Shown: piece by piece, positions 3,868-30,358 of the stretch
How the letters are laid out: each line of letters opens with the position of its first letter
Position numbering within the stretch: position 1 is the stretch's first letter
NCBI GenBank assembly: GCA_023132255.1
Contig: JAGLYK010000015.1
Location: forward strand, 1-51,234
Direction: 5' to 3'
From: Candidatus Pacearchaeota archaeon
Lineage (GTDB): Archaea; Nanobdellota; Nanobdellia; Pacearchaeales; GW2011-AR1
Length of the DNA: 51,234 nt
Program-made: the position numbers and the translations under genes
The notes under the pieces: generated by a model
Seen by the model: only the letters and a program-made list of their open reading frames with translations
The model's database searches: none
What the model was told of the DNA's origin: nothing

Positions 3868-4812
3868 CTATTTCATTAATTCACATTTTTTGCAAACATT
3901 TTTCCTTGAAGGCTCACCGCAAATTTTGCAATATTTAATTTTAATCTTATTTTCTTCGCTTTTTTTATCTTTCACAAAAATTTTCTCAAAATTATTCAAA
4001 ATATTTTTCTTGTCTTTTTCAGACAAGGTATTTACAAAATCTCTTACTTCCCCCCTGTATGATTCTTGAGAATATTTACATTTTCCTTCAATAAAAGGTA
4101 TTTTTTTTTGAATGGCGTATTTTTTAACATCTTCTTCAAAAACATAAAATAAAGGTTTTATTCTTGGAACAAATTTCTTGTCAGAAATGTTTTTTGTAAC
4201 AGGTCCAGAACTAAAACTCATCTTCGGACTTCCTTTCAAAACATTCATCAGACAAGTCTGAGCTTGGTCGTCTAAATTATGTCCTGTTGCAATTTTATCT
4301 GCTTTTAATTTTCTTGCTGTTTTATTTAAAATCCATTTTTTAAAAACCCCGCAAACCGCACAATTATTCAATCTTTTCTTTTTTATCTTTTTCCAAACAT
4401 CTTGCATTGTTTTCCCTTGCTCTTTCTTCATATCATAAACATGCAACTTTATTCCCAGCTCCTCACAAAGTTTTTTCACCGCCCCCAGGCATTTTTTACT
4501 ATACTCGCTAATCCCCAAATCAATATACAATCCTTCAATATTATACCCAAACTTCTTCAATAAAAAAGCCGTGACAGCAGAATCTTTTCCTCCAGAAAGT
4601 GCTACTAAAATTTTTTCTTTTTTGCCCTTTGTGTTTATATCCCTTCTCACAGAGGGTACCTCGTTAGAGGTTCTCGTGCCGGGAACAAAGTGAGGCGGTA
4701 CACCCTTGGGTGTGGAAAGTTTGATTTTCTTTAATGTTTGTTTAACTTGGCTTTCTACAGACGAGTTAGCTAAAATCTTTGATTTTTGTCTGACTTGTGT
4801 TTCGAGTTCCAT
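3868..4812 (-). CDS. PP-loop ATPase, tRNA 2-thiolation family (TtuA/NcsA/TtcA-like)
   Basis: SGGKDS PP-loop, GHNLDDQAQT motif, C-terminal CKICG...CKKC zinc finger. The N-terminal part carries a repeat-derived insertion. Confidence 0.8.
   Translation of the reverse strand: MELETQVRQKSKILANSSVESQVKQTLKKIKLSTPKGVPPHFVPGTRTSNEVPSVRRDINTKGKKEKILVALSGGKDSAVTAFLLKKFGYNIEGLYIDLGISEYSKKCLGAVKKLCEELGIKLHVYDMKKEQGKTMQDVWKKIKKKRLNNCAVCGVFKKWILNKTARKLKADKIATGHNLDDQAQTCLMNVLKGSPKMSFSSGPVTKNISDKKFVPRIKPLFYVFEEDVKKYAIQKKIPFIEGKCKYSQESYRGEVRDFVNTLSEKDKKNILNNFEKIFVKDKKSEENKIKIKYCKICGEPSRKNVCKKCELMK
4641..4715 (-). repeat. 75-nt GC-rich repeat module inserted in frame in the TtuA-like CDS
   Basis: Encodes TPKGVPPHFVPGTRTSNEVPSVRRD between the KKIKL helix and the KILVALSGGKDS PP-loop. 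Contains the GGTGTACC core (4697-4704) and imperfect inverted termini GAGGCGGTACACCC / GGGTACCTC. The ACCTCTAACGAGG hairpin is shared with 39682-39694. Confidence 0.75.
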
Positions 4813-4878
4813 TAACAGGATAATAAGAAAGAGTTTTAATATCTTTTTAATAAATATATCTTGCCGCCAAAATAATTA

Positions 4879-5508
4879 TTAATTTGAAATTTTCTTAGAC
4901 AACCAACTTTTTATTACCCACCAAACTGCAAAAATTATAAAAGCAATTTCAAAGAAAACAATCTGATAATAAAAAGGCACTTTCCCAAGATATGCAATCA
5001 CAAATGCAAAAGGAGTTATTCCTATAATAGTTGCTAATAAATAATTTTTTAATTTTATTTTTGTAAAAATTCCAAGTGCATAACTCAATACATCTACAGG
5101 AAGAATTATTCTAAATAATACAACACTCCAGAATAAATGTTCTTGAGGTATTTTCTTTTCAAGATTATGTATTTTTTCTAAAGAAATAAATCTTTTAATA
5201 ATTTTATACCCATATTTTCTTCCAAGAATAAATGCAATCCACGCGCCAATTGTCCATGAAAATATGTTTATGAGCCCGGTAAAAAACCATCCCCATAAAT
5301 TTGAGGCAACTGCGATTAAAGGAAGAGTTGTAACCGGAGCAATAACAATTGAAATTATTTCTATAAATATAAAAACAATTATGCCCGCAAAATCATTAAC
5401 AACCAGATTCTCAAAATAATCCAGATTCGTCTGCACGACATATGAAGCCCAGATAAATAAAACTATAACAATAATTATTTCTATTAATCCTTTTATTTTT
5501 TTATTCAT
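4879..5508 (-). CDS. TVP38/TMEM64 (DedA-related, VTT domain) membrane protein
   Basis: Multi-pass membrane protein with a motif around WGWFFTGLINIFSWTIGAWIAFILGRKYG typical of the family. Confidence 0.65.
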   Translation of the reverse strand: MNKKIKGLIEIIIVIVLFIWASYVVQTNLDYFENLVVNDFAGIIVFIFIEIISIVIAPVTTLPLIAVASNLWGWFFTGLINIFSWTIGAWIAFILGRKYGYKIIKRFISLEKIHNLEKKIPQEHLFWSVVLFRIILPVDVLSYALGIFTKIKLKNYLLATIIGITPFAFVIAYLGKVPFYYQIVFFEIAFIIFAVWWVIKSWLSKKISN

Positions 5509-5540
5509 AATTTATCAAGCAAAAAAGAGTATTTAATATA

Positions 5541-7169
5541 TTACTTAGATTTCTTTTTCTTCTTAACAACCTGAAATCCTTCCCAGCTAATTATCAAAGC
5601 AAGAACAACCAATGCTCCGGCAAATATGCTTAACACCCAATTCCCCTCAACAATAAAACCTGTCTTGCTAAACAAACTATAAAATAAAGCAGAAATCGTT
5701 GTCAGCATCATAAAGATTGTAGGAATTATCAAAAACTTAATGTTTCTTTTTTTCTGCACAAAATACGCACTGATTGTTATCAATACAATAGCAACAATTA
5801 ACTGATTAGATGTTCCAAACATTCTCCATAAATCTGCATAAGCATTTGTCACAGCAAGAATATAAGCAGGAACAATCGCAATAATTACTGCAACTATTTT
5901 ATTCTGGAAGATTTTATGTTTAATGTTTTCTGAAATCAACATCCTGCTGATTCTGCTTGAAGTGTCAAGTGAAGTAAGAATAAACTGGTTTACTAAAAAT
6001 GCTCCAATTAAGCTGGCTAAGCCAAAAGATAAAAATGGCACGCCAATTTTAGAGACAATACTTCCAAACCCGTTGCCAAATGCAATTACCCATCCCTGGT
6101 CAAGCGAACCTAAAAAATTCAGATGGCCAGTATCCCAATTTAAACTTGCAACAAACAACACAACCAAAAGTGCTAAAATACCCTCGGCAATCATCCCCCC
6201 ATAACCAATAAACTTTCCATGCTGTTCTTTTGCTAATTGCTTTGAAGTTGTGCCAGAGGCGACTAAGGAATGAAATCCTGAAGCTGCACCACAGGCTACT
6301 GTAATAAAAAGTATGGGCCACAACGGCAAATTACCTGCCACATACACTGGAGCATTAATCACAGGACGCACAATTAAAAGCGAAACAAATCCAAGCAGCA
6401 TAAACAAAATTAACTGAATTGATGAAAGGTAATCACGAGGTTGCAAAAACATCCAGACAGGAATCAGTGAAGCAAGCCCTCCGTAAGCAATAAGAATTGT
6501 TATCCAGACAAATTTAGAAACAGCTTCTGAAAAAGGAAGCGAGATTGGAAAAAGATACCCTATATACATAAAAAAGAACGCCACAGCAAGAGCAGCAAGA
6601 CTTGAAATCAAGGGGTTTGCCTTAAACTTGTAAACCGCTATCCCTAAAATAAACGCAATAACACTGATTGCCAAAACAGGAATAACCAGCATGGGCTGGG
6701 CAATAATGCTGTCTGCAGCAGAAACAGAAAACACCGCAATAATCAGTGTAAGAAGTATCCAAATCATAAGAGCGAAAATCTTCCCTGCCTTGCTGCCAAG
6801 TGACTTTTCAGTGATCTTGGAAATTCCTTTTGCCTTGTTTCTGACAGAAATCATCAAAGACAAATAATCATGAACAGCCCCGATAAAAATCGTCCCAATA
6901 ATAATCCACAAACTTGTCAAAGCCCATCCAAAATAACTCACAGCGAGGATAGGACCAATAATCGGACCTGCACCTGCAATCGACGCAAAATGATGCCCAA
7001 AAAGAAAAAACTTGTTAGAAGGATAATAATCTATTTTCCCCTTATTCAAAACCGCAGGAGTTTTTTTATTAGTCGGCTTAATCTTTTTCTCAATATATTT
7101 TCCATAAAGAAAATAATTTCCAATAAGAAATAAAATTCCCACAACTGCAATTAATGCTGCGTTTACCAT
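5541..7169 (-). CDS. cstA: carbon starvation protein CstA family transporter
   Basis: 542-aa polytopic protein with the HHFASIAGAGPIIGPILA signature of CstA. Confidence 0.85.
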   Translation of the reverse strand: MVNAALIAVVGILFLIGNYFLYGKYIEKKIKPTNKKTPAVLNKGKIDYYPSNKFFLFGHHFASIAGAGPIIGPILAVSYFGWALTSLWIIIGTIFIGAVHDYLSLMISVRNKAKGISKITEKSLGSKAGKIFALMIWILLTLIIAVFSVSAADSIIAQPMLVIPVLAISVIAFILGIAVYKFKANPLISSLAALAVAFFFMYIGYLFPISLPFSEAVSKFVWITILIAYGGLASLIPVWMFLQPRDYLSSIQLILFMLLGFVSLLIVRPVINAPVYVAGNLPLWPILFITVACGAASGFHSLVASGTTSKQLAKEQHGKFIGYGGMIAEGILALLVVLFVASLNWDTGHLNFLGSLDQGWVIAFGNGFGSIVSKIGVPFLSFGLASLIGAFLVNQFILTSLDTSSRISRMLISENIKHKIFQNKIVAVIIAIVPAYILAVTNAYADLWRMFGTSNQLIVAIVLITISAYFVQKKRNIKFLIIPTIFMMLTTISALFYSLFSKTGFIVEGNWVLSIFAGALVVLALIISWEGFQVVKKKKKSK

Positions 7170-7181
7170 CTTCTTTTATTA

Positions 7182-7252
7182 TGGGCACGAAGGGAATTGA
7201 ACCCTTTTCTCGCGGGCTGGAGCCGCGTATAATACCAGTATACTACGCACCC
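7182..7252 (-). tRNA. tRNA-Trp (CCA)
   Basis: Hand-folded cloverleaf. Acceptor GGGTGCG/CGTGCCC, anticodon arm CGCGG-CTCCAGC-CCGCG, T arm AAGGG-TTCAATT-CCCTT, discriminator A. No encoded CCA. Confidence 0.85.
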
Positions 7253-7369
7253 TTCAAATAACAAGAAATATTTACTTTTAATAGCTTTCTAATTGTGTTG
7301 ATTTTTATCCTTTTTATAATATTAACCACCAATTCAAAACCCTCAATGTAGAAATATTCACTATAACTT

Positions 7370-7783
7370 CTATCTAAACAAAACAGATACTTCCTTGTGT
7401 TCTTTGTCAAGATATTTCTCCCAAGATTTTAACTCTTGATTTTGTTCTTTTTGAGTGTAATTAATTCCATAGATGAAATTAGAATATGCATTTAATTTAT
7501 TCTGAAGAAAAAGTTCATTATTTGATGATTCTCTAAACTTATTAATTAAACTGACAACATTATTTATTATGCTTTTCCCATCTTCAGGGATATGTTTAGA
7601 ATATTCTACATTTATAGGGTTATCATAGCGATCACGTCTTCCTACAAAAGTTCCCAATTGAAACTCCATCTCTCTAATTAATTCATCAAGAGAGCTGTTT
7701 TTAAGATTATATCTTCCTTGCTCCTTTACAAAGTATCCTTTTGAACTATGTCCGATAAATATTCTTCTTTTGTTTTTTGTCAT
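7370..7783 (-). CDS. hypothetical protein
   Basis: 137-aa ORF, divergent from the TrmB-like regulator. No recognisable motif. Confidence 0.45.
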   Translation of the reverse strand: MTKNKRRIFIGHSSKGYFVKEQGRYNLKNSSLDELIREMEFQLGTFVGRRDRYDNPINVEYSKHIPEDGKSIINNVVSLINKFRESSNNELFLQNKLNAYSNFIYGINYTQKEQNQELKSWEKYLDKEHKEVSVLFR

Positions 7784-7901
7784 TTTTATTTAATTTGTTT
7801 TTATTTTATAGTAGTTATCTAAAATAGTGATATATAAATTTATGTTGTACATATTAAGTACAATTAGAAAAGAATTTAAACAGCAAAATTATATAATAAG
7901 T

Positions 7902-8633
7902 ATGATTAAAACACAATTATTAAGGAAATTAGGATTTACTAATAACGAAATTGAAATTTATTTTATCTTATTAAAACTAAAAGAAAGTTTAGCGTCAAAA
8001 ATTTCTGAAGAAACACAAATCTCCAGACCCCATGTTTATGATTCCTTGAATAAACTTATGAATAAAGGACTGGCGTCTTATATAATAAAAAATAACAAGA
8101 AACATTTTAGAGCTACCAACCCTGAAAAATTATTAGATTATATTAAAGAAAAAGAAGCTGAACTAAAACAAAATGAGAAATCTATTAGAAAAATTTTGCC
8201 TGAACTGAATTCTCTTTACAAACCTTTAAAGGAAAAACCCATCGTGGAAGTGTATGAAGGGAGCGAGGGGATAAAGACAATATTGTTTGATATAATTAAA
8301 GTTAGAAAAGAAATGATATCTTTTAATACTCTCGGTAAAGAATTTTTTGAGCATATCCCCGAACATGTTATAAAAAGATATATTAATGAAAGAAAAAATA
8401 AAAAAATAAAATCAAGACAATTTTATACAGACGGAACAAAAATCTTTAAACATTCTATGGTCAAATATAAAAAATTACCTACAGAGTCTAGTCAAGTAAC
8501 TCTTTCTGTATATGGAGATAATGTTGTTATGTTTGTTTTGAGTGAGCCAATCTTAGCAATCAAAATAAAAGATAAAAATGTAGCAAAATTATACAAAAAT
8601 CAATTTGAGATTATGTGGAAACTGATAAAATAA
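7902..8633 (+). CDS. TrmB-family winged-helix transcriptional regulator
   Basis: The N-terminal HTH (LGFTNNEIEIYFILLKLKESLASKISEETQISRPHVYDSLNKLMNKGL) is TrmB-like. The ORF is open from 7827, but the ATG at 7902 gives the typical N-terminus. Confidence 0.7.
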   Translation: MIKTQLLRKLGFTNNEIEIYFILLKLKESLASKISEETQISRPHVYDSLNKLMNKGLASYIIKNNKKHFRATNPEKLLDYIKEKEAELKQNEKSIRKILPELNSLYKPLKEKPIVEVYEGSEGIKTILFDIIKVRKEMISFNTLGKEFFEHIPEHVIKRYINERKNKKIKSRQFYTDGTKIFKHSMVKYKKLPTESSQVTLSVYGDNVVMFVLSEPILAIKIKDKNVAKLYKNQFEIMWKLIK

Positions 8634-8692
8634 TTTTCAGATTAAATTAACCAATTTCTTTAAACCAACCATAAATTCATAATGTAATTTTT

Positions 8693-9397
8693 TCATCCCA
8701 ACTTCTTAATATCCTTTATTTCTTCATTACTAATTGAACAACCTTTAAATTTAACAGCCCAAAGCAATGCATCTAATAATTTTCCGTCGCCCATTCTCAC
8801 AAGTTTTTTCTTGTATGCAATATAAACCAATTCAGCAGACCGAATTATCTTGAACTTTTTAAAAAACTCAAAATTGTTGCCCCGTTCTTTTTGCATTTGG
8901 GGTACACCTGGCGGTGATTTTTTAGAAATTATCTTGGTGTGCATTTTCTTCTCTAAAAAACTTCCTAATTTCTCAGGACTCTCAACAAGCATCCGTGTTG
9001 TCCTCTCATCAATCGCCACAACATTCAAAATATTTTTTTCAGAAAGAATTTCACTCAACGCCAAACAGGAAATTTCCCCTGCACTAACTAATTTAATATC
9101 CTTGCCTTTTCCCTCAAACATACTATTCGCAATATTTAAAATTTCTTTTGTGTTTTTTTGAATTCCTTCCACATTTGCTATCTCAAGAACCCCTTCATCT
9201 AAAAGATGCTGAATCTTCAACGCCTCCAACTTAAACCGAGTTATTGTCATTGGTATGTCAACAACCTCTCTTTTCACATCCTGCGTAATCAAAAAACTTC
9301 CATTAAAAACTTTTTTCAAATCTCGCAAAATATCCAAAATCCCATTCATAGCAAAACTAATCAAAGTGCTTGAGTCAAAGATTATTGCACGGTTCAT
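8693..9397 (-). CDS. PIN-domain-like protein
   Basis: The N-terminus (AIIFDSSTLISF...ITQDVKREV) resembles a PIN-fold nuclease. Contains the in-frame SPPGVPQMQ module. Confidence 0.5.
   Translation of the reverse strand: MNRAIIFDSSTLISFAMNGILDILRDLKKVFNGSFLITQDVKREVVDIPMTITRFKLEALKIQHLLDEGVLEIANVEGIQKNTKEILNIANSMFEGKGKDIKLVSAGEISCLALSEILSEKNILNVVAIDERTTRMLVESPEKLGSFLEKKMHTKIISKKSPPGVPQMQKERGNNFEFFKKFKIIRSAELVYIAYKKKLVRMGDGKLLDALLWAVKFKGCSISNEEIKDIKKLG
8881..8917 (-). repeat. GGTGTACC-core repeat module in frame (PPGVPQ)
   Basis: Coding strand reads CACCGCCAGGTGTACCCCAAATG. Related to the tail AACCGCCAGGTTCTTTTG of the ScpA copy and AACCGCGAGGTGTCTTTTG of the L10e copy. Confidence 0.65.
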
Positions 9398-9927
9398 CTT
9401 AACTTCTTAGGAACATGACTATTATCGTTCATGCTTCTAAGCCTCCAATTTTTAAATTTCTCTATCCAATAAATAATATTAATATTGGTTTCTCTCTGTC
9501 TAAATCCAATTGTTTTCTTAAGGTCAATTTTCATAAGAGAGGAAATTATCACTCGATTCACAAACCCGTGGCTAATTAATAAAATTGTTTTTTTCTGATT
9601 AGGATTAGAAGTTATTTTTTTTAGAAAAGAAATGAAATTTGAATATTTCTTCTTTTCATCTGCTTTCCACTTTTTTTTATCTTTCAGAAAAATTTCTGCA
9701 TTAAATTCCCTTAATGAAGTTTCTATTTTTGGTTTAATTTTAATTTTTTTAGAAACAATTTCCGCTGTTTGTTTTGCACGGAATAAATCACTACAATAAA
9801 ATTCCTCTATCACAAATTCTTTCAATCTTTTAGCAAGATGTTTTGCTTGCTTTGTTCCTTTCTTAGTTAAAGAAGGGTTTTCTCCTTCAGATTCTTTTTC
9901 AGCATGCCTAACAAATATTATCTCCAT
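9394..9927 (-). CDS. histidine phosphatase (phosphoglycerate mutase-like) family protein
   Basis: N-terminal IIFVRHAEKE (RHG-type motif) and a later SHG motif. 177 aa. Confidence 0.75.
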   Translation of the reverse strand: MEIIFVRHAEKESEGENPSLTKKGTKQAKHLAKRLKEFVIEEFYCSDLFRAKQTAEIVSKKIKIKPKIETSLREFNAEIFLKDKKKWKADEKKKYSNFISFLKKITSNPNQKKTILLISHGFVNRVIISSLMKIDLKKTIGFRQRETNINIIYWIEKFKNWRLRSMNDNSHVPKKLR

Positions 9928-9933
9928 TCAAAG

Positions 9934-10012
9934 ATCCCCTCTCGTTCGACTACACTTCTTATTCCGATGACATAGACACCATCCGGGTGTGGGCGGGCGA
10001 ATGAAAATCTTC
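9934..10012 (-). repeat. intergenic copy of the mosaic repeat (M1-type with internal insert)
   Basis: Minus strand reads GAAGATTTTCATTCGCCCGCC...GTCGAACGAGAGGGGATCTTTGA-ATG. It fills the whole gap between two CDSs and ends at the start codon of 9394..9927. Confidence 0.7.
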
Positions 10013-10547
10013 ATTGGAAGATTTCCTTCACAAGTTTAATTCTCTCTCTAACTCCTAATGTCTTAGTTTTATGAGCATCTAAAACTCCTGTCTGCCCTGC
10101 ATAATTCGCAAGTTCCCAGACTGTAATTCCCAAAAGTTTCGCAGTGTTCTGCATTGAAACACCGTGCCCGTAAATCTTCGACGCCTTGTTAATGCTCGCC
10201 TTCCTAAAAACTTCCTGAATATATTTTTTCATCCCCGGAGAAGTCTTCCCAATCTCCGCACGCAATTGTTTTAAATTTTTCTTCAGCAAGTTCTCATCTT
10301 TCTTTGCACTTCTCATAACCTCATCAATCTTTCTAGTCACAACATTTAAATTCTCAACATATCCTCTCTCCAAAATCTTGCCCAAAGAATAAACAATCAC
10401 AGCAACAGCAATGTTGTCTGCATCTTGCGTCCTCGACGCAGTATTATTTGTCTGGTCACTCAACTGCTTAAGTTTCAAAGTATCTTTATTTTTCAAGGCA
10501 ACTTTTGTCTCTTCAAGAATCCTAAGAATATTTTCAACCTCTTCCAT
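10011..10547 (-). CDS. hypothetical protein (possible C-terminal HTH)
   Basis: 178-aa ORF. The segment SMQNTAKLLGITVWELANYAG looks HTH-like. Confidence 0.45.
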   Translation of the reverse strand: MEEVENILRILEETKVALKNKDTLKLKQLSDQTNNTASRTQDADNIAVAVIVYSLGKILERGYVENLNVVTRKIDEVMRSAKKDENLLKKNLKQLRAEIGKTSPGMKKYIQEVFRKASINKASKIYGHGVSMQNTAKLLGITVWELANYAGQTGVLDAHKTKTLGVRERIKLVKEIFQ

Positions 10548-10578
10548 AATAAATTATAGAAAAGATGATTAATAAATG

Positions 10579-13667: not shown

Positions 13668-14054
13668 ATGGAAATAATTAATGAAAAAGAAAACAAACTT
13701 TTCAACAGAAAAGAAATTCAAATAAATATTGAAGCAGAAATTACACCAAGTCATGAAGAAGCTAAAAAATTAATTTCTGAAAAATTCTCAACCCAACCAG
13801 AAAACATCAGAATAAAAAAAATCTTGGGAAAGTTCGGCTCAAAAGTTTTTGAGATTTCTGCAAATATTTATTTTTCTGAAGAAGAAAAAAATAAAACTGA
13901 AATTTTTTCAAAAAAAGAAAAAGAAAGAGAGAGAAAACCTGAACCTGCATCGCCTGGTGTACCCTCAAATACTGAATTACAGGGCAAAAAAACCGAAGCT
14001 CCTGTTGAAGAAAAACAAGAAGAAATTAAAGAAAAATCTAATGAGGTAAATTAA
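13668..14054 (+). CDS. rps24e: 30S ribosomal protein S24e with a K/E-rich C-terminal extension
   Basis: The N-terminal ~95 aa match the S24e pattern (NKLFNRKEIQ...ITPSHEE...). The tail contains the ASPGVPSNT repeat module. Confidence 0.85.
   Translation: MEIINEKENKLFNRKEIQINIEAEITPSHEEAKKLISEKFSTQPENIRIKKILGKFGSKVFEISANIYFSEEEKNKTEIFSKKEKERERKPEPASPGVPSNTELQGKKTEAPVEEKQEEIKEKSNEVN
13938..13985 (+). repeat. GGTGTACC-core repeat module in frame in the S24e tail
   Basis: CCTGAACCTGCATCGCCTGGTGTACCCTCAAATACTGAATTACAGGG. The ACTGAATT.C.GGG part resembles CTCACTGAATTCGGG in the thermosome insertion. Confidence 0.6.
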
Positions 14055-15027: not shown

Positions 15028-16029
15028 ATGGAAAAAGATGTGAGGGATATGCGATTTCCGTCGGATTGCAATAGAGAAATTGCTTCACGGAACAGGAAGC
15101 AAATCAAAGATTTTCAGTCGTCCGCCGAGGACATCGAACGAAAGGGAGATTCCAAAGAACCGCCAGGTTCTTTTGTTCAGGAGCAAATCCACGACATTTT
15201 ATTCAACAGGGAAATCGGTTGGCAAGAAATCATCTACGACCTAATCAACACAGAACAGCTTGACCCGTGGGACATAAACATAACAATTCTAACTAACAAA
15301 TACCTTGAAAAAATAGAGCAATTTGAAGAAGCAGATTTCTTCATCTCAAGCAAAGTCCTTTTGGCAGCTGCACTTCTCCTTAGAATCAAATCTGAAATCC
15401 TGTTAAACACTTACATCAAAAGCATAGACGAAATCCTCTTTGGAAAAAAAGAAAAAAAGAAACATGTCCTTGAAAGAATCGAACTTGACGAAGAAATCCC
15501 AGAACTAATTCCCCGAAGCCCAATTCCTCGTTACAAAAAAGTTACATTAAAAGAATTAATTAATTCATTAAACAAAGCAATCAAAACCGAAAACAGAAGA
15601 ATCAAAAAAGAAATAATCCACAAAAACGCATTAAGGGAAACAGGAATCTTTTTGCCAAAAAGAAAAATCAACATCCGCAACAAGATAAAACAAATCTATG
15701 AAAACCTGTTAAGTCATCTTGGCGAGGATAAAGCCAGGAAAAAAATTTCTTTTACAGAATTTGCCGGAACAAGCAGGGAAGAAAAAATAGCTTGTTTTTC
15801 TCCGCTTCTGCATCTGGAAAATCAAAAAAAAATCTGGCTTGAACAGGAAGAGCATTTTGAAGAAATTCATCTCTGGCTCAAAAAAACTTATCTAAAACAT
15901 AATCCAGACCCATTTGCAGATTTAAAATACGAAATAGAAAAAGAGATAAAAACCGAGGACATCAAACGAGACAAAGAACAAAAACAAAGATTAGACAAAA
16001 TAAATAAAGATTTTGTGGAACTTATTTAA
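15028..16029 (+). CDS. scpA: segregation and condensation protein A (kleisin) with a repeat-derived N-terminus
   Basis: The core (WQEIIYDLINTEQLDPWDINITILTNKYLEKI...) is ScpA-like. There is no in-frame ATG/GTG/TTG downstream of the repeat, so the repeat must be translated. Confidence 0.75.
   Translation: MEKDVRDMRFPSDCNREIASRNRKQIKDFQSSAEDIERKGDSKEPPGSFVQEQIHDILFNREIGWQEIIYDLINTEQLDPWDINITILTNKYLEKIEQFEEADFFISSKVLLAAALLLRIKSEILLNTYIKSIDEILFGKKEKKKHVLERIELDEEIPELIPRSPIPRYKKVTLKELINSLNKAIKTENRRIKKEIIHKNALRETGIFLPKRKINIRNKIKQIYENLLSHLGEDKARKKISFTEFAGTSREEKIACFSPLLHLENQKKIWLEQEEHFEEIHLWLKKTYLKHNPDPFADLKYEIEKEIKTEDIKRDKEQKQRLDKINKDFVELI
15051..15175 (+). repeat. composite mosaic repeat (hairpin module M0 + module M1 + tail) forming ScpA codons 9-50
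   Basis: GCGATTTCCGTCGGATTGCAATAGAGAAATTGC (M0), then AAGCAAATCAAAGATTTTCAGTCGTCCGCCGAGGACATCGAACGAAAG (M1), then GGGAGATTCCAAAGAACCGCCAGGTTCTTTTG (tail). Confidence 0.85.
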
Positions 16030-22199: not shown

Positions 22200-22217
22200 A
22201 AATTTAAATTATTGGAA

Positions 22218-22531: not shown

Positions 22532-23791
22532 CTAATCTCTGTTAAAGCTATCTAAAAGTTTGAAATACTCGTTCTTATCAATAGTTTTATCTGATTCTGA
22601 CAACCCAATGTTTTCAGAAAATTTCCAAAATGCCAACGGCTTGTAACCCTTTTTCTTCAATGCCTGAATCGTCGGTAATCTTGAATCCCCCCACCCAGAA
22701 TATTTACCCTCTTTAATTCCTTTTGTAATTTCACTCGCAGAAAGTCTCAGTCCTTTAATATGCCATCTTCCCAAATAAGCTTCCCAAGGATATTTTTTTC
22801 CCAAAACTTTATAAATCATTTTTTGCCTTTTTGCATTATCCCTGTGCTCTTTTGCTCTGATAATATGTGTCATTTTCATTTCTATATCATCAACAGTAAC
22901 CGCCAAATTCATCAACGGCCAGACACGATATTTTTTCTTTTGCAATGGATGTGGAGTTTCATTAATTCTTGCCAACGGAAAATCTCTCATCGCAGGATTC
23001 TTGTGCTTCATTCCTTCAGAAGATTTAAATCTTAAAACAGCCTCGCCAACTTTAAATCCTTTTTTCTTGCCTTCAGTAGAAATCTTCTTTGAAGATTTAT
23101 CAGGGTACGCCCGTGGTGCTAACATTCTTTTCCACCTTTCTAAATTTTCCTTAACACTTAATTTTCTGCAAGGACAATTTTTTTCCTGTTCAACAAATTT
23201 TCTAAATTCATCTCCAGAACAAGTGCAAACATAAGCTGCTTTTTTATCAATCAACCTCCTCACATATTTGTAATAAATTTCCATTCTTTCAGACTGAATC
23301 ACAATCTTCGCTTTGTTGTCAAAAAGCCATTTTGAATCTTGCTCGATTAATTTGTAAGCTTTTGGATAAATATTTTCTGGGTTTGTATCCTCTATCCGAA
23401 CATAAAACTTCCCACCATACTTCATCACAAAATCAAAAGAAATACACGCAGTCATTGCATGTCCAATATGAAATGCCCCAGACGGCGACGGTGCAAATCG
23501 CATTACAACCCTGTGGTTTTTTGCACCAGAAAGTTCAGGCAAGCCCTCGCGAACTTTCCTCTTTGAAACTTCTTTTTCTAATTTTTCAAATTCTTTTTTC
23601 TGCTCCTCCAAACTTAAACCATTAACTTCTTTCACTATCTCAGAAATTTTCTTAATGTATTTTTTAACATCTTGCTTTTTTAATCCCTCATTAAACAGCG
23701 CAGAAATCACTGAGCCAATCTGTGCTTTTCCGTTGTATGAAAGTGCGTTTTTTAAGGCGTATGCGTGGGTTTTTTTGTTTAGATTTTTCAT
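22532..23791 (-). CDS. gltX: glutamate--tRNA ligase, archaeal type, lacking the C-terminal anticodon-binding domain
   Basis: GatB/YqeY-like N-domain (YALKNALSYNGKAQIGSVI), HIGH motif (SGAFHIGHA), THIIRAKEH, and LRLSAS in the KMSKS position. The ORF ends at 419 aa. Confidence 0.85.
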   Translation of the reverse strand: MKNLNKKTHAYALKNALSYNGKAQIGSVISALFNEGLKKQDVKKYIKKISEIVKEVNGLSLEEQKKEFEKLEKEVSKRKVREGLPELSGAKNHRVVMRFAPSPSGAFHIGHAMTACISFDFVMKYGGKFYVRIEDTNPENIYPKAYKLIEQDSKWLFDNKAKIVIQSERMEIYYKYVRRLIDKKAAYVCTCSGDEFRKFVEQEKNCPCRKLSVKENLERWKRMLAPRAYPDKSSKKISTEGKKKGFKVGEAVLRFKSSEGMKHKNPAMRDFPLARINETPHPLQKKKYRVWPLMNLAVTVDDIEMKMTHIIRAKEHRDNAKRQKMIYKVLGKKYPWEAYLGRWHIKGLRLSASEITKGIKEGKYSGWGDSRLPTIQALKKKGYKPLAFWKFSENIGLSESDKTIDKNEYFKLLDSFNRD

Positions 23792-24999: not shown

Positions 25000-25007
25000 T
25001 AATAAAT

Positions 25008-25403
25008 TTAATCATAATTCCTAACACCTGACTTTCTTTCCAAAACATCTATCCGTTGCTGAAGATGGTAAATCTGGTTTGACAAATCTTCTATCTTAGT
25101 TGTCATGTCTAAAAGTCTTTTTGCAAGTTTTCTTTTTTTCTCATCAACAGAAGAAACATTGCCCCCGAATATTCCATCCTGCATATCAGGGGGTACACCT
25201 TTAGGTGCTAATCCGGAATTTGCAGATGAATCATTTTTGGAGATAGTATTTGCAATTGCACCAAAAAACCCAAGACCTCCTGCATTTTCAGAAGGACCCG
25301 AGGATTCCTGTAAATCCTGCTCCATCTCTTCAGTACGCGCTTGCTGTCTTTCATATCTCTTGGTTAAATCAAGAATCCTATTTTTCCTTTTAAACCATTT
25401 CAT
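25008..25403 (-). CDS. hypothetical coiled-coil protein with a disordered centre
   Basis: 131 aa. Basic N-terminus, C-terminal heptad-like region, and a central APKGVPPDM module. Confidence 0.5.
   Translation of the reverse strand: MKWFKRKNRILDLTKRYERQQARTEEMEQDLQESSGPSENAGGLGFFGAIANTISKNDSSANSGLAPKGVPPDMQDGIFGGNVSSVDEKKRKLAKRLLDMTTKIEDLSNQIYHLQQRIDVLERKSGVRNYD
25186..25210 (-). repeat. GGTGTACC-core module in frame (APKGVPPDM)
   Basis: Coding strand reads GCACCTAAAGGTGTACCCCCTGATATG. Core at 25192-25199. Confidence 0.6.
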
Positions 25404-25487
25404 AAGAAATAAAATATTTTCATTTATTTAAATTTAACTGATGAAACATTTTTTAAATAAGTTTAATTTAATATCAAAAAGAAGAAA

Positions 25488-26459
25488 ATGAAACTAACAA
25501 AAAAAGAGGCACAGAGAATATCTGAAGAATATTTCTTAGGGGAAATAAAAAAGATGGAAAAACTAGAAGGTGGAAGAAATAATTTGAACTATCTGATTAA
25601 AACCAAAAAAGGAAAATATGTGATAAGAATAATACAAAATAAACAAAACCGAGAAAGAGAATTAATACAATTAAAAGTTTTAAAATTTCTTCAAGAAAAA
25701 AATTTTCCTTATGAAGTTCCAATACCAATCAAAAATAGAGAGAAAAAAGTATTTTCTAATTGGAAAAAATATTTGCTTTGGGTTTATTCTTTTATTGAAG
25801 GAAAGACTATTGATGAGAGAAAAATTTTATCAATAAATAAGATTAAAGAGATTGCTAAAGTTTTAGCAATTTACCATAAACAAATAAGAAAATTTCAAAT
25901 AAAAAATTTAAGAAAAAATAATCCACCAAAATTTTATCTTCAAGAATATTCAAAATTAAAGAAGAAATCAGTAAAAAACAAAATAGATAAATACTTTCTA
26001 AACAACGAAGAATTTTTTGTAAGGTTTATTAAAAGGATTAATTCGCTTAAAAAAACAGGGGAAGAATTAATTGTCCATACAGATTTATCTCAAAAAAATA
26101 TTATATTTAAAAACCAGAAGATAGTAGGTATAATTGATTTTGAAGTATGGGATGTGGCTCCAAAAATTCTTGATATTGCTTACACTTCAGAATATTGTTG
26201 TAAAACAAAGAAAGGATCTAGTAAGAAGAGATTAAATATATTTTTAGAAGAATACAAGAAACACAACAAATTAACAAAAATAGAAAAAGACAATGTTCCA
26301 TTATTTATCGCTTATGATTATAGTATAGGTTTTTGGTGGAACTATACACAATATAATACAACTATTAATAACAAGCTAGATGGAATGAAAGCAATGAGAA
26401 ATAGACTTAATGATTTTTTACAACAATTTCCAGAATTAAAAAAGATTAGAAAGGTTTAA
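25488..26459 (+). CDS. aminoglycoside phosphotransferase (APH)/homoserine kinase II-like kinase
   Basis: VHTDLSQKNIIF (catalytic loop) and IIDFE (DFG-equivalent) motifs. 323 aa. Confidence 0.75.
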   Translation: MKLTKKEAQRISEEYFLGEIKKMEKLEGGRNNLNYLIKTKKGKYVIRIIQNKQNRERELIQLKVLKFLQEKNFPYEVPIPIKNREKKVFSNWKKYLLWVYSFIEGKTIDERKILSINKIKEIAKVLAIYHKQIRKFQIKNLRKNNPPKFYLQEYSKLKKKSVKNKIDKYFLNNEEFFVRFIKRINSLKKTGEELIVHTDLSQKNIIFKNQKIVGIIDFEVWDVAPKILDIAYTSEYCCKTKKGSSKKRLNIFLEEYKKHNKLTKIEKDNVPLFIAYDYSIGFWWNYTQYNTTINNKLDGMKAMRNRLNDFLQQFPELKKIRKV

Positions 26460-26622
26460 AAATTCTGAAATAATAAATTTATTATGAATAAAGAAGCAAA
26501 ATTAGATAGAGAATTATTTCTTTTTAGACTTGTCTCTATTTTTAATCTTCTTAACCTAGACTAAATTCTCCTCATTGTAGGGGAGAACTATGTAAAATTT
26601 CTAAACTTAATAAAACTCTAAT

Positions 26623-27543
26623 ATGGCACTTCCACCTGATATCCAAAAACAGAAAATAAGAAAAAGATTGACTGGCTTAGAAGGAAAAGCCAGACTAAAT
26701 GAAATTAAAAAAATTCTTGAAGAATTGCCGGGCTATAAAACAGGAGATTATGGGCAAATAAGAAAATCTTTGATGAAGGAGATTGAAACAACAAAAACTC
26801 GTTCTAAAATAAAACATCAGGATTGGTTGGGCGTGTCAAGACAAGGACATAAACAATTTTGTTTAGTTGGAGCACCAAGTGCAGGAAAAAGTTCCTTGCT
26901 TTCAAAATTATCGGGGATGAAGATAAAAACAGCAGAATATGACTTTACAACATTAAAACCTATTCCTGCAGTTGTAAAATTAAATGGGGCTCAAATACAA
27001 ATAGTGGATTTGCCGGGATTAATTGAGGGAGCAACAGAAGATGCAGGAAGAGGAAAAAGATTAATTGGAATTGTTAAAAACACCGATGGAATTTTATTTA
27101 TGATTGATTTGGCAAAAGATTACTCTAAAGCTGAAAAAGTTTATAATGAATTGGTTAAGGCAAACATTCAAAAACCAATTATTTTTATTGGAAATAAAAT
27201 TGATTTACCTTCTGCAAATGAGAACGCGATAAAATTAAAAAATAAATTTAAAGATTTAATTCTCTTGTCCACTTTAACAGGAGAAGGCATAGGATATTTG
27301 AAAAAAGAAATTTGGGAAAAATCAAATCTTATAAGGGTTTATACTGAAAAAACAGACGAGCCAATGATTTTAAAAAAAGGTTCTTCTGTTGAAGATTTGG
27401 TAAAAAAAATTCATAAGAATTTATTGGAAAAATTCAAAACAGCTATTATAAGCGGGCCGAGTGCCAAGTTCTCAAATCAACGAGTTGGATTAAATCACAC
27501 TTTGAAAGATAACGATAAAGTTGAAATAGTTTCTGAAAGATAA
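26623..27543 (+). CDS. DRG/Obg-family GTPase with C-terminal TGS domain
   Basis: G1 GAPSAGKSS, G3 DLPGLIEGA, G4 NKID, TGS-like C-terminus (IRVYTEK...DNDKVEIV). Confidence 0.85.
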   Translation: MALPPDIQKQKIRKRLTGLEGKARLNEIKKILEELPGYKTGDYGQIRKSLMKEIETTKTRSKIKHQDWLGVSRQGHKQFCLVGAPSAGKSSLLSKLSGMKIKTAEYDFTTLKPIPAVVKLNGAQIQIVDLPGLIEGATEDAGRGKRLIGIVKNTDGILFMIDLAKDYSKAEKVYNELVKANIQKPIIFIGNKIDLPSANENAIKLKNKFKDLILLSTLTGEGIGYLKKEIWEKSNLIRVYTEKTDEPMILKKGSSVEDLVKKIHKNLLEKFKTAIISGPSAKFSNQRVGLNHTLKDNDKVEIVSER

Positions 27544-27585
27544 GTTTTCAAAAGCATTTTTAAACACAAATCTCTTAATTAAAAC

Positions 27586-29001
27586 ATGGGGGAAATTGAT
27601 GAAATAATAAATAAGGTGAGTCCTTATTACAAGGCAAAAGCTGAACCTGAGGCAGAGCACAAAATCGTTTACGATTCTTCAACAGAAACCTTGGAGCCTG
27701 TTTATTTTTGGATTTTGGATTTCATGAACAACATGATGGGACTTTCAACAGAAAAATTAGTTGACAATTTTACATCATCTCCTGGCTCAGGGCATTTTGG
27801 AGAATTAGGTCAAAGAGCAACAGTGATGCAGCAGCAAGGACAAAACATGCTCGCGCAAATAAACACCATCCTGAGAAGTGTGTTAAATATAATTTATGAT
27901 TTAAAAGAATTTAAAATAAGACTTCAAAGTTATGACGATTTAAAATCAGAAGGAAAAAAAGAAGCTGCACGACAAAGTTTAAAGCAAATCTGGTTAGACA
28001 AGGTTGACATGCAGAAAGGAAACTCAAGTATAAAAGCAATGGCTTTGGGACAGGCAGGATTCCAAACCCTGCTCGACGCATTTTTAGTAGTCAATGACAT
28101 AAAAGGAGCTGAGAAACTTGATTTAAACGACAGGGTGAAAAGAATTGTTTCTGCAAGAATACACGAATTTAATATTTGGCTTACACAATCTGAAATAGAA
28201 CTAAGAAAAAGATATGAAATGGAACGAATTTATTTAGGCAGTCAGGTTAATTCATTAAAGCTTTACTCTCGGTGGGCAAAACCTTATCTAAAAGCAGCAC
28301 AGCAACTTGAAATGAAAGAGAGCAAAAGAGAACCTGCATTAGTAAAAACATTCAATACAATTTTACTTGAATTAACTTTATTAGGAAAAGACGGGGTAGA
28401 TGTGAAAAAATCCGCAATTGCAGGGGACTTGCCAACTGACTTTCAAAAACTAAAAACAAAAAGAGATTATTACAGCTGTGTTCTGGTTGATTTCAATTTC
28501 AGAGGAATACCCCAAAGAGTGGCACAAAGAGGAGACTACGCCTTCGGAGGAAGAGCAGAAGTAACTTTCAAGGCTTATGCATTAAACAGCGAAGAGTTGG
28601 ATAAACTAAATTATGAATTAGACAAGTCAGACATAGGAGATGTTCTAAAATTAATAGAGGGTTCAACATCAGAAAGTCTGGACCAGTTGCAGAAAGAAAT
28701 TGATTTTTTCCTGAAAGAAAAAGAAAACCAGGAAGAAAAGGAAAAACCAAAAGACCAGTCAAATCCTTTTCTGGCTTTAATCGGGCATTATGATAAAAAA
28801 GATAAATCAGAAAAACAAGATAAGTCTGTACCCAAGGGTGTACCCTCTAAAGAGGACAAAGACAAAGACAAGCCAGTCAAGCCAGACAATTGGATTGAAA
28901 AAACTCACCTCAGAGCTTTCGCAGCAGCAGAAGCAGTTGACAAAGTTTTCACAATTTTTGATGTTTACAAAAAGTCACATGGAATGGAAAGCTTCACATA
29001 A
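27586..29001 (+). CDS. hypothetical protein (471 aa, no recognised family)
   Basis: Long non-repetitive ORF. The K/D-rich linker near the C-terminus carries the VPKGVPSKE module. Confidence 0.6.
   Translation: MGEIDEIINKVSPYYKAKAEPEAEHKIVYDSSTETLEPVYFWILDFMNNMMGLSTEKLVDNFTSSPGSGHFGELGQRATVMQQQGQNMLAQINTILRSVLNIIYDLKEFKIRLQSYDDLKSEGKKEAARQSLKQIWLDKVDMQKGNSSIKAMALGQAGFQTLLDAFLVVNDIKGAEKLDLNDRVKRIVSARIHEFNIWLTQSEIELRKRYEMERIYLGSQVNSLKLYSRWAKPYLKAAQQLEMKESKREPALVKTFNTILLELTLLGKDGVDVKKSAIAGDLPTDFQKLKTKRDYYSCVLVDFNFRGIPQRVAQRGDYAFGGRAEVTFKAYALNSEELDKLNYELDKSDIGDVLKLIEGSTSESLDQLQKEIDFFLKEKENQEEKEKPKDQSNPFLALIGHYDKKDKSEKQDKSVPKGVPSKEDKDKDKPVKPDNWIEKTHLRAFAAAEAVDKVFTIFDVYKKSHGMESFT
28826..28852 (+). 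repeat. GGTGTACC-core module in frame (VPKGVPSKE)
   Basis: CTGTACCCAAGGGTGTACCCTCTAAAG. The 14-mer CCCAAGGGTGTACC is identical to the TtuA-like copy. Core at 28837-28844. Confidence 0.6.
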
Positions 29002-29016
29002 ATTTTATTTAACAAA

Positions 29017-29709
29017 ATGGTAAAAACAAGAGGATTAAAAGAAGCAATAAAAAAATTAGGAAATTTGGAGAAAATAATTTCTAATATGTTAAAGAAAAAA
29101 AAGAAAATCAGAATTTTTGAATCTGGTTGTGGTTATGGACAAATTATGATTGAGTTAAAAGAAAAATTTGGTGATAAAATAGATATTGTTGGAATGAATT
29201 ACAAACCAACTAAAAACGATACAGAAGCGATAATTAATTTTACTAAAACTGAAGGAAAGAAAATAATTCGTGATTTAAAGAAATTAAAAATAAAAGTTAT
29301 TTTGGGAAATGCAGGGAAAAAGTTGCCTTTTAAAACAGGTTCAATTGATTTAGTTTATAGTCAAACTTCTTCTTATCTTTATGAGGATAAAATGCACTTT
29401 TTTGAAGAAGTTGCAAGAATATTATCAAAAGAAGGTATTGCAAGAATTACCCCTGCACACTTCAAAAAAAATCTTCCAAAAGAATTTCAAAAAATACTTA
29501 TGATTTATGATAATGGAACTGAAATTCTGTTTGGGAAATTAATAAAAAGATTTAGAAATATAAAATTGATTACCTTACCAAGCAAAAAACAAGTGATAGA
29601 AATTAAAAGTGGAAAATTAAATTTTGGTCTTAAATTAGAATCAACCATTAACACTAATCATCTCGCAAAAAAATGGTTTGGAATAGTTTCAGTTTATTCT
29701 TTTAAATGA
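29017..29709 (+). CDS. class I SAM-dependent methyltransferase
   Basis: Motif I IFESGCGYGQIMIEL, followed by an acidic residue after beta-2. Confidence 0.7.
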   Translation: MVKTRGLKEAIKKLGNLEKIISNMLKKKKKIRIFESGCGYGQIMIELKEKFGDKIDIVGMNYKPTKNDTEAIINFTKTEGKKIIRDLKKLKIKVILGNAGKKLPFKTGSIDLVYSQTSSYLYEDKMHFFEEVARILSKEGIARITPAHFKKNLPKEFQKILMIYDNGTEILFGKLIKRFRNIKLITLPSKKQVIEIKSGKLNFGLKLESTINTNHLAKKWFGIVSVYSFK

Positions 29710-29767
29710 TAAAGAGTTATACTTGAAATTTAGAAAACCTTATATATTTCTCTAACTTCTCTAAACT

Positions 29768-30358
29768 ATGCCAAAAGAAGTAAATGAATCAAAACAGGAA
29801 GACAAAGAAAAAGAGAAACAAGATGATTCTGAATTAGAAGAACTAATTGAAAAACCAGAACAAAATGAAACAGCACCTGAAGGTGTACCTTCTGATGAGG
29901 CAGACGAGGGCAAAGAATCTAATATTGACCAAAATCAGTTCAGGGAATTTTTGCAGACAGAATCAACTGCACCTGTTTTAGAAGAAATCACAGGAGAGCA
30001 GGAATTAGGCGGTCGGGTTTTTTTCACACCTGGGATGGACACAGATGTACAGGACGAGGACAATGCTTTCAGATACGACATACAAGCAAAAGAAGATGAG
30101 CCAAAATATCACGGAGATTATTCTACAGCAAGGCAAAATTTGGAAGAAATTGACACAGCAAAAATCGGGAGAGACATTGGGCAACCTCAAGTTAGGGAAG
30201 CTGGATTTGTGCATGCTGTTGAACAAACTGATTCTCCAATGCAGGAAAAATATCAAGAAGCACAAAAAATTGACATGGAAAAAGTCGGGAGAGAAAATCT
30301 TTTTGAAACAAGAGTTAAGGAAGTAGAACGAAAAAAATTAGACTATGTTATAAAATAA
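29768..30358 (+). CDS. hypothetical acidic protein
   Basis: 196 aa, D/E-rich. The N-terminal region carries the APEGVPSDE module. Confidence 0.5.
   Translation: MPKEVNESKQEDKEKEKQDDSELEELIEKPEQNETAPEGVPSDEADEGKESNIDQNQFREFLQTESTAPVLEEITGEQELGGRVFFTPGMDTDVQDEDNAFRYDIQAKEDEPKYHGDYSTARQNLEEIDTAKIGRDIGQPQVREAGFVHAVEQTDSPMQEKYQEAQKIDMEKVGRENLFETRVKEVERKKLDYVIK
29873..29900 (+). repeat. GGTGTACC-core module in frame (APEGVPSDE)
   Basis: GCACCTGAAGGTGTACCTTCTGATGAGG. Core at 29882-29889. Resembles CAAGGTGTCTTTTGAGG at the tRNA-Val cassette end. Confidence 0.6.

Follow-up and report, generated by a model that had tools for sequence, protein, structure and literature searches.

Hairpin-forming GC-rich repeats, probably inserted as DNA, in translated linkers of unrelated genes of a Pacearchaeota archaeon

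The contig JAGLYK010000015.1 of Candidatus Pacearchaeota archaeon (assembly GCA_023132255.1), analysed here over positions 1 to 51,234 and referred to below as the window, carries six exact copies of the 8-mer GGTGTACC in six unrelated protein-coding genes. Two small hairpins meet side by side at GGTGTACC, which joins the 3' arm of the first, CACC-N4-GGTG, via the dinucleotide TA, to the 5' arm of the second, CC(N)k..(N')kGG-CA(A/C). With a probability of roughly 0.78, the copies belong to a family of very small, GC-rich, hairpin-forming repeats that insert at the DNA level and are tolerated and translated in the linkers of proteins, and do not constitute a peptide signal. Between the two main readings put forward in an earlier note on the same DNA, an inserted element under frame selection and a short linear peptide motif, the former is the one borne out: the 8-mer is part of a hairpin repeat unit, this unit is gained or lost between close relatives, and its DNA is shared by genes that are otherwise unrelated.

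The coordinates, strands and frames of the six copies were all recovered as first listed (Table 1), and so was the expectation of less than one copy by chance; shuffles give 0.18 copies against the six observed, and none of 100 dinucleotide shuffles reaches six. GGTGTACC is also the most enriched 8-mer of the window, at 54-fold over a third-order Markov expectation. Each of the six is on the coding strand, with GGT-GTA-CCN as its codons and P-x-G-V-P-[P/S/Q] as its peptide context; the similarity of their flanks holds at the peptide level, where P-x-G-V-P is observed five times against 0.04 expected, and two copies do share a longer stretch, whose true length is 15 nt (ACCCAAGGGTGTACC) and not 14. 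Codon bias was considered as the cause of GGTGTACC, but both codon usage and shuffles of synonymous codons rule it out: GGT represents 17% of Gly, GTA 19% of Val and CCC 8% of Pro codons of the window, the rare CCC is present in four of the six copies, and synonymous-codon shuffling with the real proteins fixed yields 0.34 copies (maximum 3). The wobble positions of the 8-mer are invariant while the flanking residues vary, and the three remaining GVP tripeptides of the window, all in folded regions, are coded GGAGTTCCT, GGCGTGCCA and GGGGTTCCC. Codon usage, shuffles, the other GVP tripeptides and the mismatch counts given further below thus point to a constraint at the nucleotide level or to common descent, wobble positions included. 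Restriction-site effects on GTAC were also set aside, this tetramer being only mildly rare (62 observed versus 80-93 expected), which does not account for the 8-mer. The runner-up among the enriched 8-mers is GCCAGTCA, with six copies (19-fold), at least one of which sits within a AAGCCAGTCAAGCCAGAC stretch in the linker, at about 28860-28900, of a conserved 471-aa protein.

The outer unit that surrounds the 8-mer has the form CACC-N4-GGTG-TA-CC(N)k-loop-(N')kGG-CA(A/C); it is GC-rich, 30-50 nt long and made of two hairpins. An arm complementary to GGTG is located exactly 4 nt upstream in six of six copies (p about 6e-8), the arm being CACC in four copies and CATC and TACC in one copy each. 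Five of the six also possess a GGCA[AC] partner downstream, at a distance of 13-45 nt and with additional compensating pairs (background 3.3%, p about 2e-7), and a variant unit in the glutamyl-tRNA synthetase (GluRS) gene has such a partner too. The arms of the second helix, P2, pair as CCCT/AGGG, CCCC/GGGG, CCCCC/GGGGG, CCTTC/GAGGG and CCG/CGG in the window units, and the covariation of this helix is apparent from CCCC/GGGG, CCG/CGG, CCTTC/GAGGG, CCCT/AGGG, CCCCA/TGGGG and CCCTCAG/TTGAGGG. Folding by minimum free energy reproduces both hairpins at five of the six window sites. Thermodynamic stability was dropped as support, the fold z-scores being weak, with that of the unit in a TtuA-like gene (-2.37) the sole notable one; because the stabilities are not unusual, the structural claim rests on recurrence and on compensating arms, not on energy. 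Support for the helices was obtained from matched-versus-mismatched and arm-tabulation tests; MAFFT alignments could not register the variable loops. Since CACC-NNNN-GGTG-TACC is translated in frame (xCA-CCN-NNN-GGT-GTA-CCN), P-x-G-V-P is a by-product of this architecture, and the codon that precedes the proline of the CACC arm keeps its CA across Ala, Thr and Ser.

The window holds seven units, namely the six with the exact 8-mer and the GluRS variant, and all of the copies are found in tails, linkers or indel-rich segments. What had been suspected to be a degenerate seventh copy in GluRS (23103-23120) is a true homolog: L011, the closest relative, has a longer copy at this site with which it can be aligned. 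Its frame differs, a 1-nt deletion having shifted it so that the translation is A-P-R-A-Y-P-D. The copy in the TtuA-like gene is a composite in which GGCACGAGAACCTCTAACGAGG is the sole intact core, in the window, of an inner module that is described below; this core matches the copy in the ribosomal protein S24e gene of L011 at 21 of 22 nt, and the composite ends with a second GTACCC..GGGCAAAAAAGAA unit that starts at 4662. The site in the 471-aa protein forms TACC-CAAG-GGTG-TA-CC(CTC)T-AAA-GAGG.

Comparison with relatives reveals filled and empty sites. Syntenic DNA was reached through orthologs of the 471-aa protein, in L011 (92%), L012/L013 (84%) and L014-L016 (81%), and L077 and L099 are further relatives that carry orthologs of several other host genes. 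In the 471-aa protein itself, GVP is present in none of 39 aligned orthologs (identity 60-92%), and the window alone has, relative to L011, a clean 30-nt insertion, AAGATAAGTCTGTACCCAAGGGTGTACCCT, whose flanks are near-identical in the alignment. The PIN-like protein has no insert in L099, the unit (13 extra aa) in the window, and the unit with a nested inner module (23 extra aa) in L077. The insert of GluRS is absent in L012, L014 and L099; it amounts to about 20 extra residues in the window and to about 40 in L011, where the same unit as in the window has modules of 33 and 30 nt nested on either side of the GGCGTA core. The tail of S24e is without any unit in L099; it contains a drifted copy, AGTGTGCC, translated as SVPQD, in L014 and L077, the exact 8-mer in the window, and in L011 the exact 8-mer between two additional nested 33-nt modules. 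The 8-mer in the gene of the 131-aa coiled-coil protein (25008 ORF) is absent in L011, L014 and L099, L011 having a variant module, GGCATGACCTCTGAAGATGGAG, and the unit of the 29768 ORF has a same-site copy in L011 and none in L012 and L014. L011 has the exact 8-mer at two of the four orthologous sites covered; the 81-84% relatives have none in about 21 kb each. The ortholog pattern named at the outset as refuting the proposal, GVP kept by other codons, agrees with these data in part only, the motif being absent from the orthologs instead of kept in other codons.

The four indels that separate the window from L011 measure 33, 33, 33 and 30 nt, again between flanks that are near-identical in the alignment, and together with four modules nested at TA^CC they bring the measurable insertions that are 30 or 33 nt long and stop-free to eight of eight. 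As the lengths within open reading frames (ORFs) are multiples of three, the units appear to be translated and not removed. L011 also contains a shorter module variant, CCC-ACA-GGG-ATGA-CCTC-TGAAGATG-GAGG, in which ATGA takes the place of the conserved junction (L011:533-558, about 8290-8320 on the minus strand and about 9708-9733 on the minus strand); it includes a C-box-like GATGA and a D-box-like CTGA, a resemblance to a K-loop that was seen by eye only. The shorter variant in the L011 ortholog of the 25008 ORF may be old, and L014 has a drifted version of it.

The homology extends across unrelated genes and across frames. The extra blocks of L011 in S24e, in GluRS and in the 25008 ortholog are the same nucleotide sequence, with local alignment scores of 58, 47 and 32 versus shuffle maxima of 29, 21 and 22, respectively. 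The GluRS copy of L011 is in a different frame (GDDLQRKRPQAYTQRAQEPLRG versus GMTSEDGGLGVPSNIPKEGTRTSHE), and the TGA that would close this frame is replaced by CAA. The TtuA-like protein matches contigs L057 and L060 solely across its element-encoded stretch, and the composite recurs in Kae1/TsaD (L060) and in other proteins that share nothing else with TtuA. In 228 kb of independent low-GC contigs, eight of eight exact GGTGTACC copies have the CACC hairpin and are on the sense strand of an ORF, so that 14 of 14 exact copies (window and other low-GC contigs) are sense. The outer unit with GGTGTACC is found in at least 10 low-GC contigs, with compensating P2 arms of up to 9 bp, and in four low-GC contigs the module, 30 or 33 nt each time, is nested exactly at the TA^CC of the outer unit. 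The claim that the 8-mer is always read Gly-Val-Pro holds in the window (6/6) but not in the other DPANN-like contigs, where six of eight exact copies are in this frame, one being read S-V-Y-P (L066) and one R-C-T (L121); the G-V-P frame is thereby used by 12 of 14 exact copies (p about 8e-5).

The inner module, TA-CCC-loop-GGG-CAC(A/G)AGAA-CCUC-loop-GAGG, is 29-33 nt long and likewise made of two hairpins; nested in DNA it appears as TACCC-loop-GGGCAC[A/G]AGAACCTC-loop-GAGG. Its wider distribution was surveyed in the Joint Genome Institute (JGI) metagenome collection by exact matches to the pattern GGCAC[A/G]AGAACCTCT-N1-2-CGAGG, with 20 specified bases, which is present at more than 120 loci where chance would by rough estimate provide only a handful. 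All counts given for the module are among the matches listed; genes on the contigs were called by longest-ORF heuristics, and GC content, verified on few contigs, was used as a proxy for domain. The host contigs range from 26% to 69% GC. Eighty-five of 101 parsed copies start with TA, which is followed by a C-run, a loop of 3-6 nt and a G-run, and the junction GGGCAC(A/G)AGAACC is nearly invariant in two domains. When helix P3 is left unconstrained, it covaries through double changes (CCUC/GAGG, CCUGU/ACAGG, CCUG/CAGG, CCCC/GGGG).

The high-GC contigs are bacterial, as they encode Met-tRNA formyltransferase (fmt), GGDEF-EAL proteins and a bacterial-type ValRS. The bacterial copies are mostly intergenic (63/84) and have no orientation bias relative to neighbouring genes; 61% of them are enclosed by at least five pairing flank bases, versus 14% for mismatched flanks, and they typically occupy the loop of a GTAGG-type repetitive extragenic palindromic (REP) hairpin, where deletion of CCC...GAGGTA restores a TAAA tetraloop. 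In low-GC, DPANN-like contigs, flanking stems surround 4% of copies. An outer stem, P1, was for this reason rejected as an intrinsic part of the module; the difference between 61% of bacterial and 4% of archaeal copies reflects insertion into pre-existing hairpins. Twenty of the 33 low-GC copies are inside ORFs, 19 in sense and one in antisense orientation (p = 4e-5), and all three sense frames are represented (GTRTSxE 10, GHENLxRG 8, RAREPLRG 3). Their DPANN-like hosts include an FKBP-type peptidyl-prolyl isomerase, ribosomal proteins S3 and S4, Kae1/TsaD, a metallo-β-lactamase-fold protein, SerRS, an Elp3-like radical-SAM enzyme, a LigD phosphoesterase domain (LigD-PE), a PPDK-like enzyme and an ATP-dependent DNA ligase.

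Some individual loci of the module deserve mention. In the N-terminal domain of the ATP-dependent DNA ligase of L137 (residues about 45-75), three tandem 33-nt copies, CACCCACAGGGGGCACGAGAACCTCTCACGAGG, are translated as (APTGGTRTSHE)x3. At L027:1-60, L038:8080-8230 (minus strand) and L089:150-310, the module is situated beside tRNA genes or within T-arm-like GGTTCGA|TACCC..GAGG|ATCC, and in L038 the 3' part of the tRNA, TTCCTGCTCAGGGCG, is duplicated after the module; these tRNA-associated copies could be insertions into T-loops or att-like duplications. On the bacterial contig L021 (9904-10059), two inverted copies lie 100 nt apart and are 96% complementary over 28 nt, which makes a larger palindrome reminiscent of a REPIN-like doublet. 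Searches for named relatives returned nothing: Rfam 15 does not match the element at gathering score (20 loci) or at E up to 1 (12 short loci), and the scan of the window at gathering score yields tRNAs only; two module patterns have no match in IMG/VR, BLAST finds none in PLSDB plasmids or GenBank phages, and a string search for the core sequence in the searchable literature library retrieves unrelated PCR primers only.

These data are best accommodated by insertion followed by selective survival. The unit would have colonised the protein-coding genes of this DPANN (Nanoarchaeia/Pacearchaeota-type) lineage, its copies arising by DNA-level insertion, preferentially into hairpin loops or at TA, with older copies of the family among the targets; the module, in turn, nests into units at TA^C or in their loops and, in bacteria, occupies the loops of REP-type hairpins. 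In a gene-dense genome of 31% GC, the survivors would be those that keep the frame (multiples of three), sit in linkers, tails and surface loops, and are translated to harmless hydrophilic peptides rich in Pro, Gly, Ser and Thr. Survival of this kind may give the sense-strand bias and the strong, though not absolute, preference for the A-P-x-G-V-P-[PS] frame. The copies themselves would then be selfish or neutral, and the bias in frame and strand would presumably stem from selection on the translated peptide.

Several observations weigh against this reading. GGTGTACC is letter-perfect in six of six copies, yet the loops and tails are unrelated, and its one-mismatch variants are at chance level (3 extra versus 6.5 expected); a letter-perfect 8-mer is not expected from the passive decay of old insertions, and it hints at gene conversion, at the spread of a very short unit or at selection on the junction. 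Stop codons explain neither of the two biases, as no frame of the short unit is closed by stops, which leaves the G-V-P preference unaccounted for, and as the antisense frames of the module are open, which does the same for its 19:1 sense bias. Another 18.3 kb of the same genome contains no GGTGTACC where about two would be expected (P(0) about 0.12), and the total of about 70 kb of sequence examined from this genome limits the census. The fold z-scores of the window units extend from -2.4 to +0.8, and the metagenome sample was chosen by a fixed 20-nt pattern, its counts being those of the matches listed. As regards movement, no recurrent neighbouring protein or transposase was found near the module, the best family reaching 6 of 120 loci among the matches listed, and the stretches between paired copies contain nothing that resembles a transposon. 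Target-site duplication is inconsistent and terminal inverted repeats are not clear: the module ends, TACCC.. / ..GAGG(TA), show weak inversion only, the bacterial copies have the appearance of TA[..]TA or TA[..]TG, and the archaeal filled/empty pairs are without duplication. Because ends and duplication give no consistent signal, the word mobile is used here on the basis of distribution, not of mechanism.

Among the alternatives, the one that survives best, although it is improbable, is a functional sense-strand RNA element residing in mRNAs, whether a protein-binding or ribosome-pausing hairpin pair at linkers, a small catalytic or structured RNA, or an entity spreading through an RNA intermediate, with translation being incidental in every case. 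The sense bias of the module in archaeal ORFs (19:1, despite stop-free antisense frames) and the 14 exact 8-mers that are all sense are what such an element would produce, but the bacterial copies have no orientation bias relative to genes, and ORF lengths in multiples of three indicate units that are translated and not removed. Both helices covary and include wobble pairs that exist on the sense strand only (CATC/GGTG, CCTTC/GAGGG, TCCT/AGGG); the extended P2 (GUACCC/GGGCAC), on the other hand, has an A-C mismatch on the sense strand and a G-U pair on the antisense strand. A letter-perfect core among variable loops and a junction that is nearly invariant across two domains and from 26% to 69% GC would also suit an RNA, whereas the weak fold z-scores and the lack of any Rfam match, even at E up to 1, would not; moreover, presence or absence between near-identical relatives speaks against an essential role, and in L014 and L077 the S24e copy, an ortholog, has been free to drift. 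The letter-perfect core, the G-V-P frame bias, the 19:1 sense bias, the near-invariant junction and the lack of a duplication or partner enzyme are nonetheless the reasons why a sense-RNA function, or a machinery that recognises the sequence, retains a minor share of the probability.

It is very unlikely that P-x-G-V-P-[PS] serves in disordered segments as a true short linear motif for docking, processing or modification of the peptide, with codons shared through recent spread. The enrichment of P.GVP, the 12 of 14 exact copies in the G-V-P frame, none of whose alternatives is closed by stops, and the position of all copies in tails, linkers or indel-rich segments are compatible with it. However, the motif is missing from all 39 orthologs of the 471-aa protein and from orthologs of the PIN-like protein, GluRS and the 25008 ORF; its wobble bases do not change, unlike the residues next to it; the CACC arm accounts for the upstream P-x; one and the same DNA unit is translated as APRAYPD, SVYP and RCT in GluRS, L066 and L121, respectively; the linked module is used in three sense frames; and the conserved GGGCAA partner, 13-45 nt downstream, has no peptide rationale. 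Slightly less probable still is the notion that the modules of 30-33 nt are archaeal bulge-helix-bulge (BHB) mini-introns cut from mRNA or tRNA by the splicing endonuclease. DPANN archaea are known for non-canonical tRNA introns, copies lie beside or within T-arm-like sequences in L027, L038 and L089, and ORFs exhibit a sense-strand bias; yet L027 gave no tRNA call, no BHB can be drawn at the junctions (as judged by eye), eight of eight measurable insertions are multiples of three and stop-free, neither of which a spliced intron needs, and bacteria, in which this endonuclease is missing, carry the module in abundance. Least credible of all is a role of AGGTG as a Shine-Dalgarno (SD)-like signal for internal initiation or for pausing via anti-SD pairing: GGTG is an SD core, an in-frame ATG does follow AGGTG in two of six copies, at 8 and 11 nt, and GAGGT(G) precedes a few operon-internal genes of the window, but most window ORFs have no SD and are preceded, about 25 nt upstream of the ATG, by a TTTAAA/TTATAA-like box, a combination that suggests leaderless transcripts, four of six copies have no downstream start codon, GGTG is the 3' arm of the CACC/GGTG hairpin, and TACC, the CACC arm, the GGGCAA partner and the insertion polymorphism would be left without explanation.

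Other features of the window stand apart from this family. A second, unrelated family of GC-rich dispersed repeats comprises stretches of 28-85 nt that are 86-97% identical and occur in both orientations (Table 1), several of which immediately flank tRNA-Val, tRNA-Gly, the L16 gene, ScpA and ORF 32369. It is probably the "cassette" whose end, GAGGTGTC, had been thought to resemble the 8-mer; this resemblance is superficial, as the cassette belongs to another repeat family and has no module in common with the units. The repeats of this second family are possibly promoter or terminator modules in shared use, or a further small mobile element. The genes for tRNA-Val(UAC) (39393-39464, minus strand) and tRNA-Gly(GCC) (39750-39820, plus strand), which decode the GTA and GGT codons of the motif, are both flanked by cassette repeats, and their match to the motif codons is probably a coincidence. 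A 133-nt tRNA at 47446-47578 (minus strand), detected by Rfam (51 bits) and not reported by ARAGORN, adjoins cassette repeats and is presumably intron-bearing. Several palindromes of 4 bp are strongly avoided, GATC occurring 46 times versus about 265-300 expected and CTAG, GGCC, TCGA and ACGT being 2-4-fold low, a pattern in the letters that suggests restriction-modification pressure.

Table 1. Repeat units and repeat families of the window, with positions in the 51,234-nt stretch.
Feature	Position	Strand	Composition	8-mer
TtuA-like PP-loop protein, N-terminal extension	4616..4712	-	composite copy	4697-4704
TtuA-like composite, order of elements	P0 4712-4701; core 4680-4659	-	P0 CACC-CAAG-GGTG, TA, P2 CCG..CGG, core GGCACGAGAACCTCTAACGAGG	
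PIN-like (DUF3368-like) protein, outer unit	8877..8916	-	CACC-GCCA-GGTG-TA-CCCC-15 nt-GGGG-CAA	8901-8908
Ribosomal protein S24e, C-terminal tail, outer unit	13948..13987	+	CATC-GCCT-GGTG-TA-CCCT-15 nt-AGGG-CAAAAAAACC	13956-13963
GluRS, degenerate outer unit	23067..23120	-	CACC-ACGG-GCG-TA-CC..GG-CAAGAA; AAATCTTC/GAAGATTT stem in loop	
131-aa coiled-coil protein (ORF 25008-25403), outer unit	25159..25207	-	CACC-TAAA-GGTG-TA-CCCCC-22 nt-GGGGG-CAA	25192-25199
Conserved 471-aa protein (27586-29001), K/E-rich linker	28812..28858	+	30-nt insertion AAGATAAGTCTGTACCCAAGGGTGTACCCT and adjoining CTAAAGAGGACAA	28837-28844
196-aa protein (ORF 29768-30358), near N-terminus, outer unit	29874..29913	+	CACC-TGAA-GGTG-TA-CCTTC-13 nt-GAGGG-CAAAGAATC	29882-29889
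Second repeat family	15050-15147, 30421-30481, 32498-32545, 34799-34883, 39465-39550, 39864-39924, 42195-42288, 47309-47372			

The module raises the question as to what preserves it. The settings in which it was observed are REP loops in bacteria, related copies of its own family, T-arm-like sequences and, in DPANN archaea, the linkers of genes; a sequence of about 30 nt is thus almost unchanged from 26% to 69% GC in two domains, and no known family, transposase or publication was found for it. Conservation of this kind usually denotes a sequence recognised by specific machinery. It is possible, if only tentatively, that the module is an undescribed cross-domain mobile or structured nucleic-acid element that spreads by targeting hairpin loops or TA sites, that its junction is perhaps the recognition or catalytic core (an enzyme substrate or a very small ribozyme), and that activity or gene conversion keeps GGTGTACC letter-perfect. 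For annotation, the consequence is that dozens of DPANN housekeeping proteins, such as aminoacyl-tRNA synthetases, ribosomal proteins, DNA ligase, Kae1 and a TtuA-like enzyme, carry translated repeat-derived segments, which an annotator could take for motifs, linkers or domains specific to a lineage; the empty and filled sites, for their part, are usable as strain markers.

Known systems offer partial parallels. The mobile GC clusters of yeast mitochondria are short GC-rich hairpins that spread in AT-rich genomes, even in coding sequence (var1); they differ from the present units in belonging to eukaryotic organelles and in having unrelated sequences. Small insertion elements have also been compared as MITEs (miniature transposable elements with inverted repeats), which are non-autonomous and multicopy and can fuse in-frame with host ORFs (PMC10969869). 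The present repeats resemble MITEs as non-autonomous, multicopy small insertions that contrast with their surroundings in AT/GC content, and they share with them dispersed copies with insertion polymorphism (seven window units, empty and filled orthologous sites, many unrelated genes). However, typical MITEs are 50-500 bp long, are bounded by clear terminal inverted repeats, have duplicated target sites and can be recognised as derived from a parent insertion sequence, whereas here the inversion of the ends is weak, the target duplication is not consistent, and the surroundings of the loci, which are on partial contigs, revealed no parent element.

The REP sequences and their doublets (REPINs), mobilised by REP-associated tyrosine transposases (RAYTs), are similar in being GC-rich imperfect palindromes of 20-40 nt present in many copies, and superfamilies tagged by GTAG or CGTC are among those described (PMC3733652). 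REPs are, however, extragenic and genome-specific in sequence, whereas the module is nearly identical across phyla and domains, occupies the loop of a REP rather than being the REP itself, and is intragenic in archaea; all window copies and 20 of 33 low-GC copies are in ORFs, while 63 of 84 bacterial copies are intergenic. No GTAG or CGTC tag was seen by eye, short of a dedicated scan, in the printed unit and module sequences, the bacterial host hairpins carrying GTAGG, and no RAYT gene is present among the genes near the module loci on their partial contigs.

The closest parallel is with the Rickettsia palindromic elements (RPEs), whose in-frame insertion into unrelated genes, with translation, was reportedly described by Ogata et al. 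in 2000. RPEs are short, hairpin-forming palindromic repeats found in-frame in many unrelated housekeeping genes and translated there, at positions that the fold of the protein can accommodate, and their presence varies among related genomes (PMC10969869). They measure about 100-150 bp, are restricted to Rickettsia and use one conserved frame; in a comparison by description, the present units are 30-50 nt long with a module of 29-33 nt, reside in DPANN archaea, are nested, use three sense frames and have a core shared with many bacteria. Like RPEs, they are found in-frame in many unrelated ORFs and are translated, with indels of 30 or 33 nt, and they thus extend the concept of selfish DNA inside genes from Rickettsia to ultra-small archaea, with far smaller, nested units.

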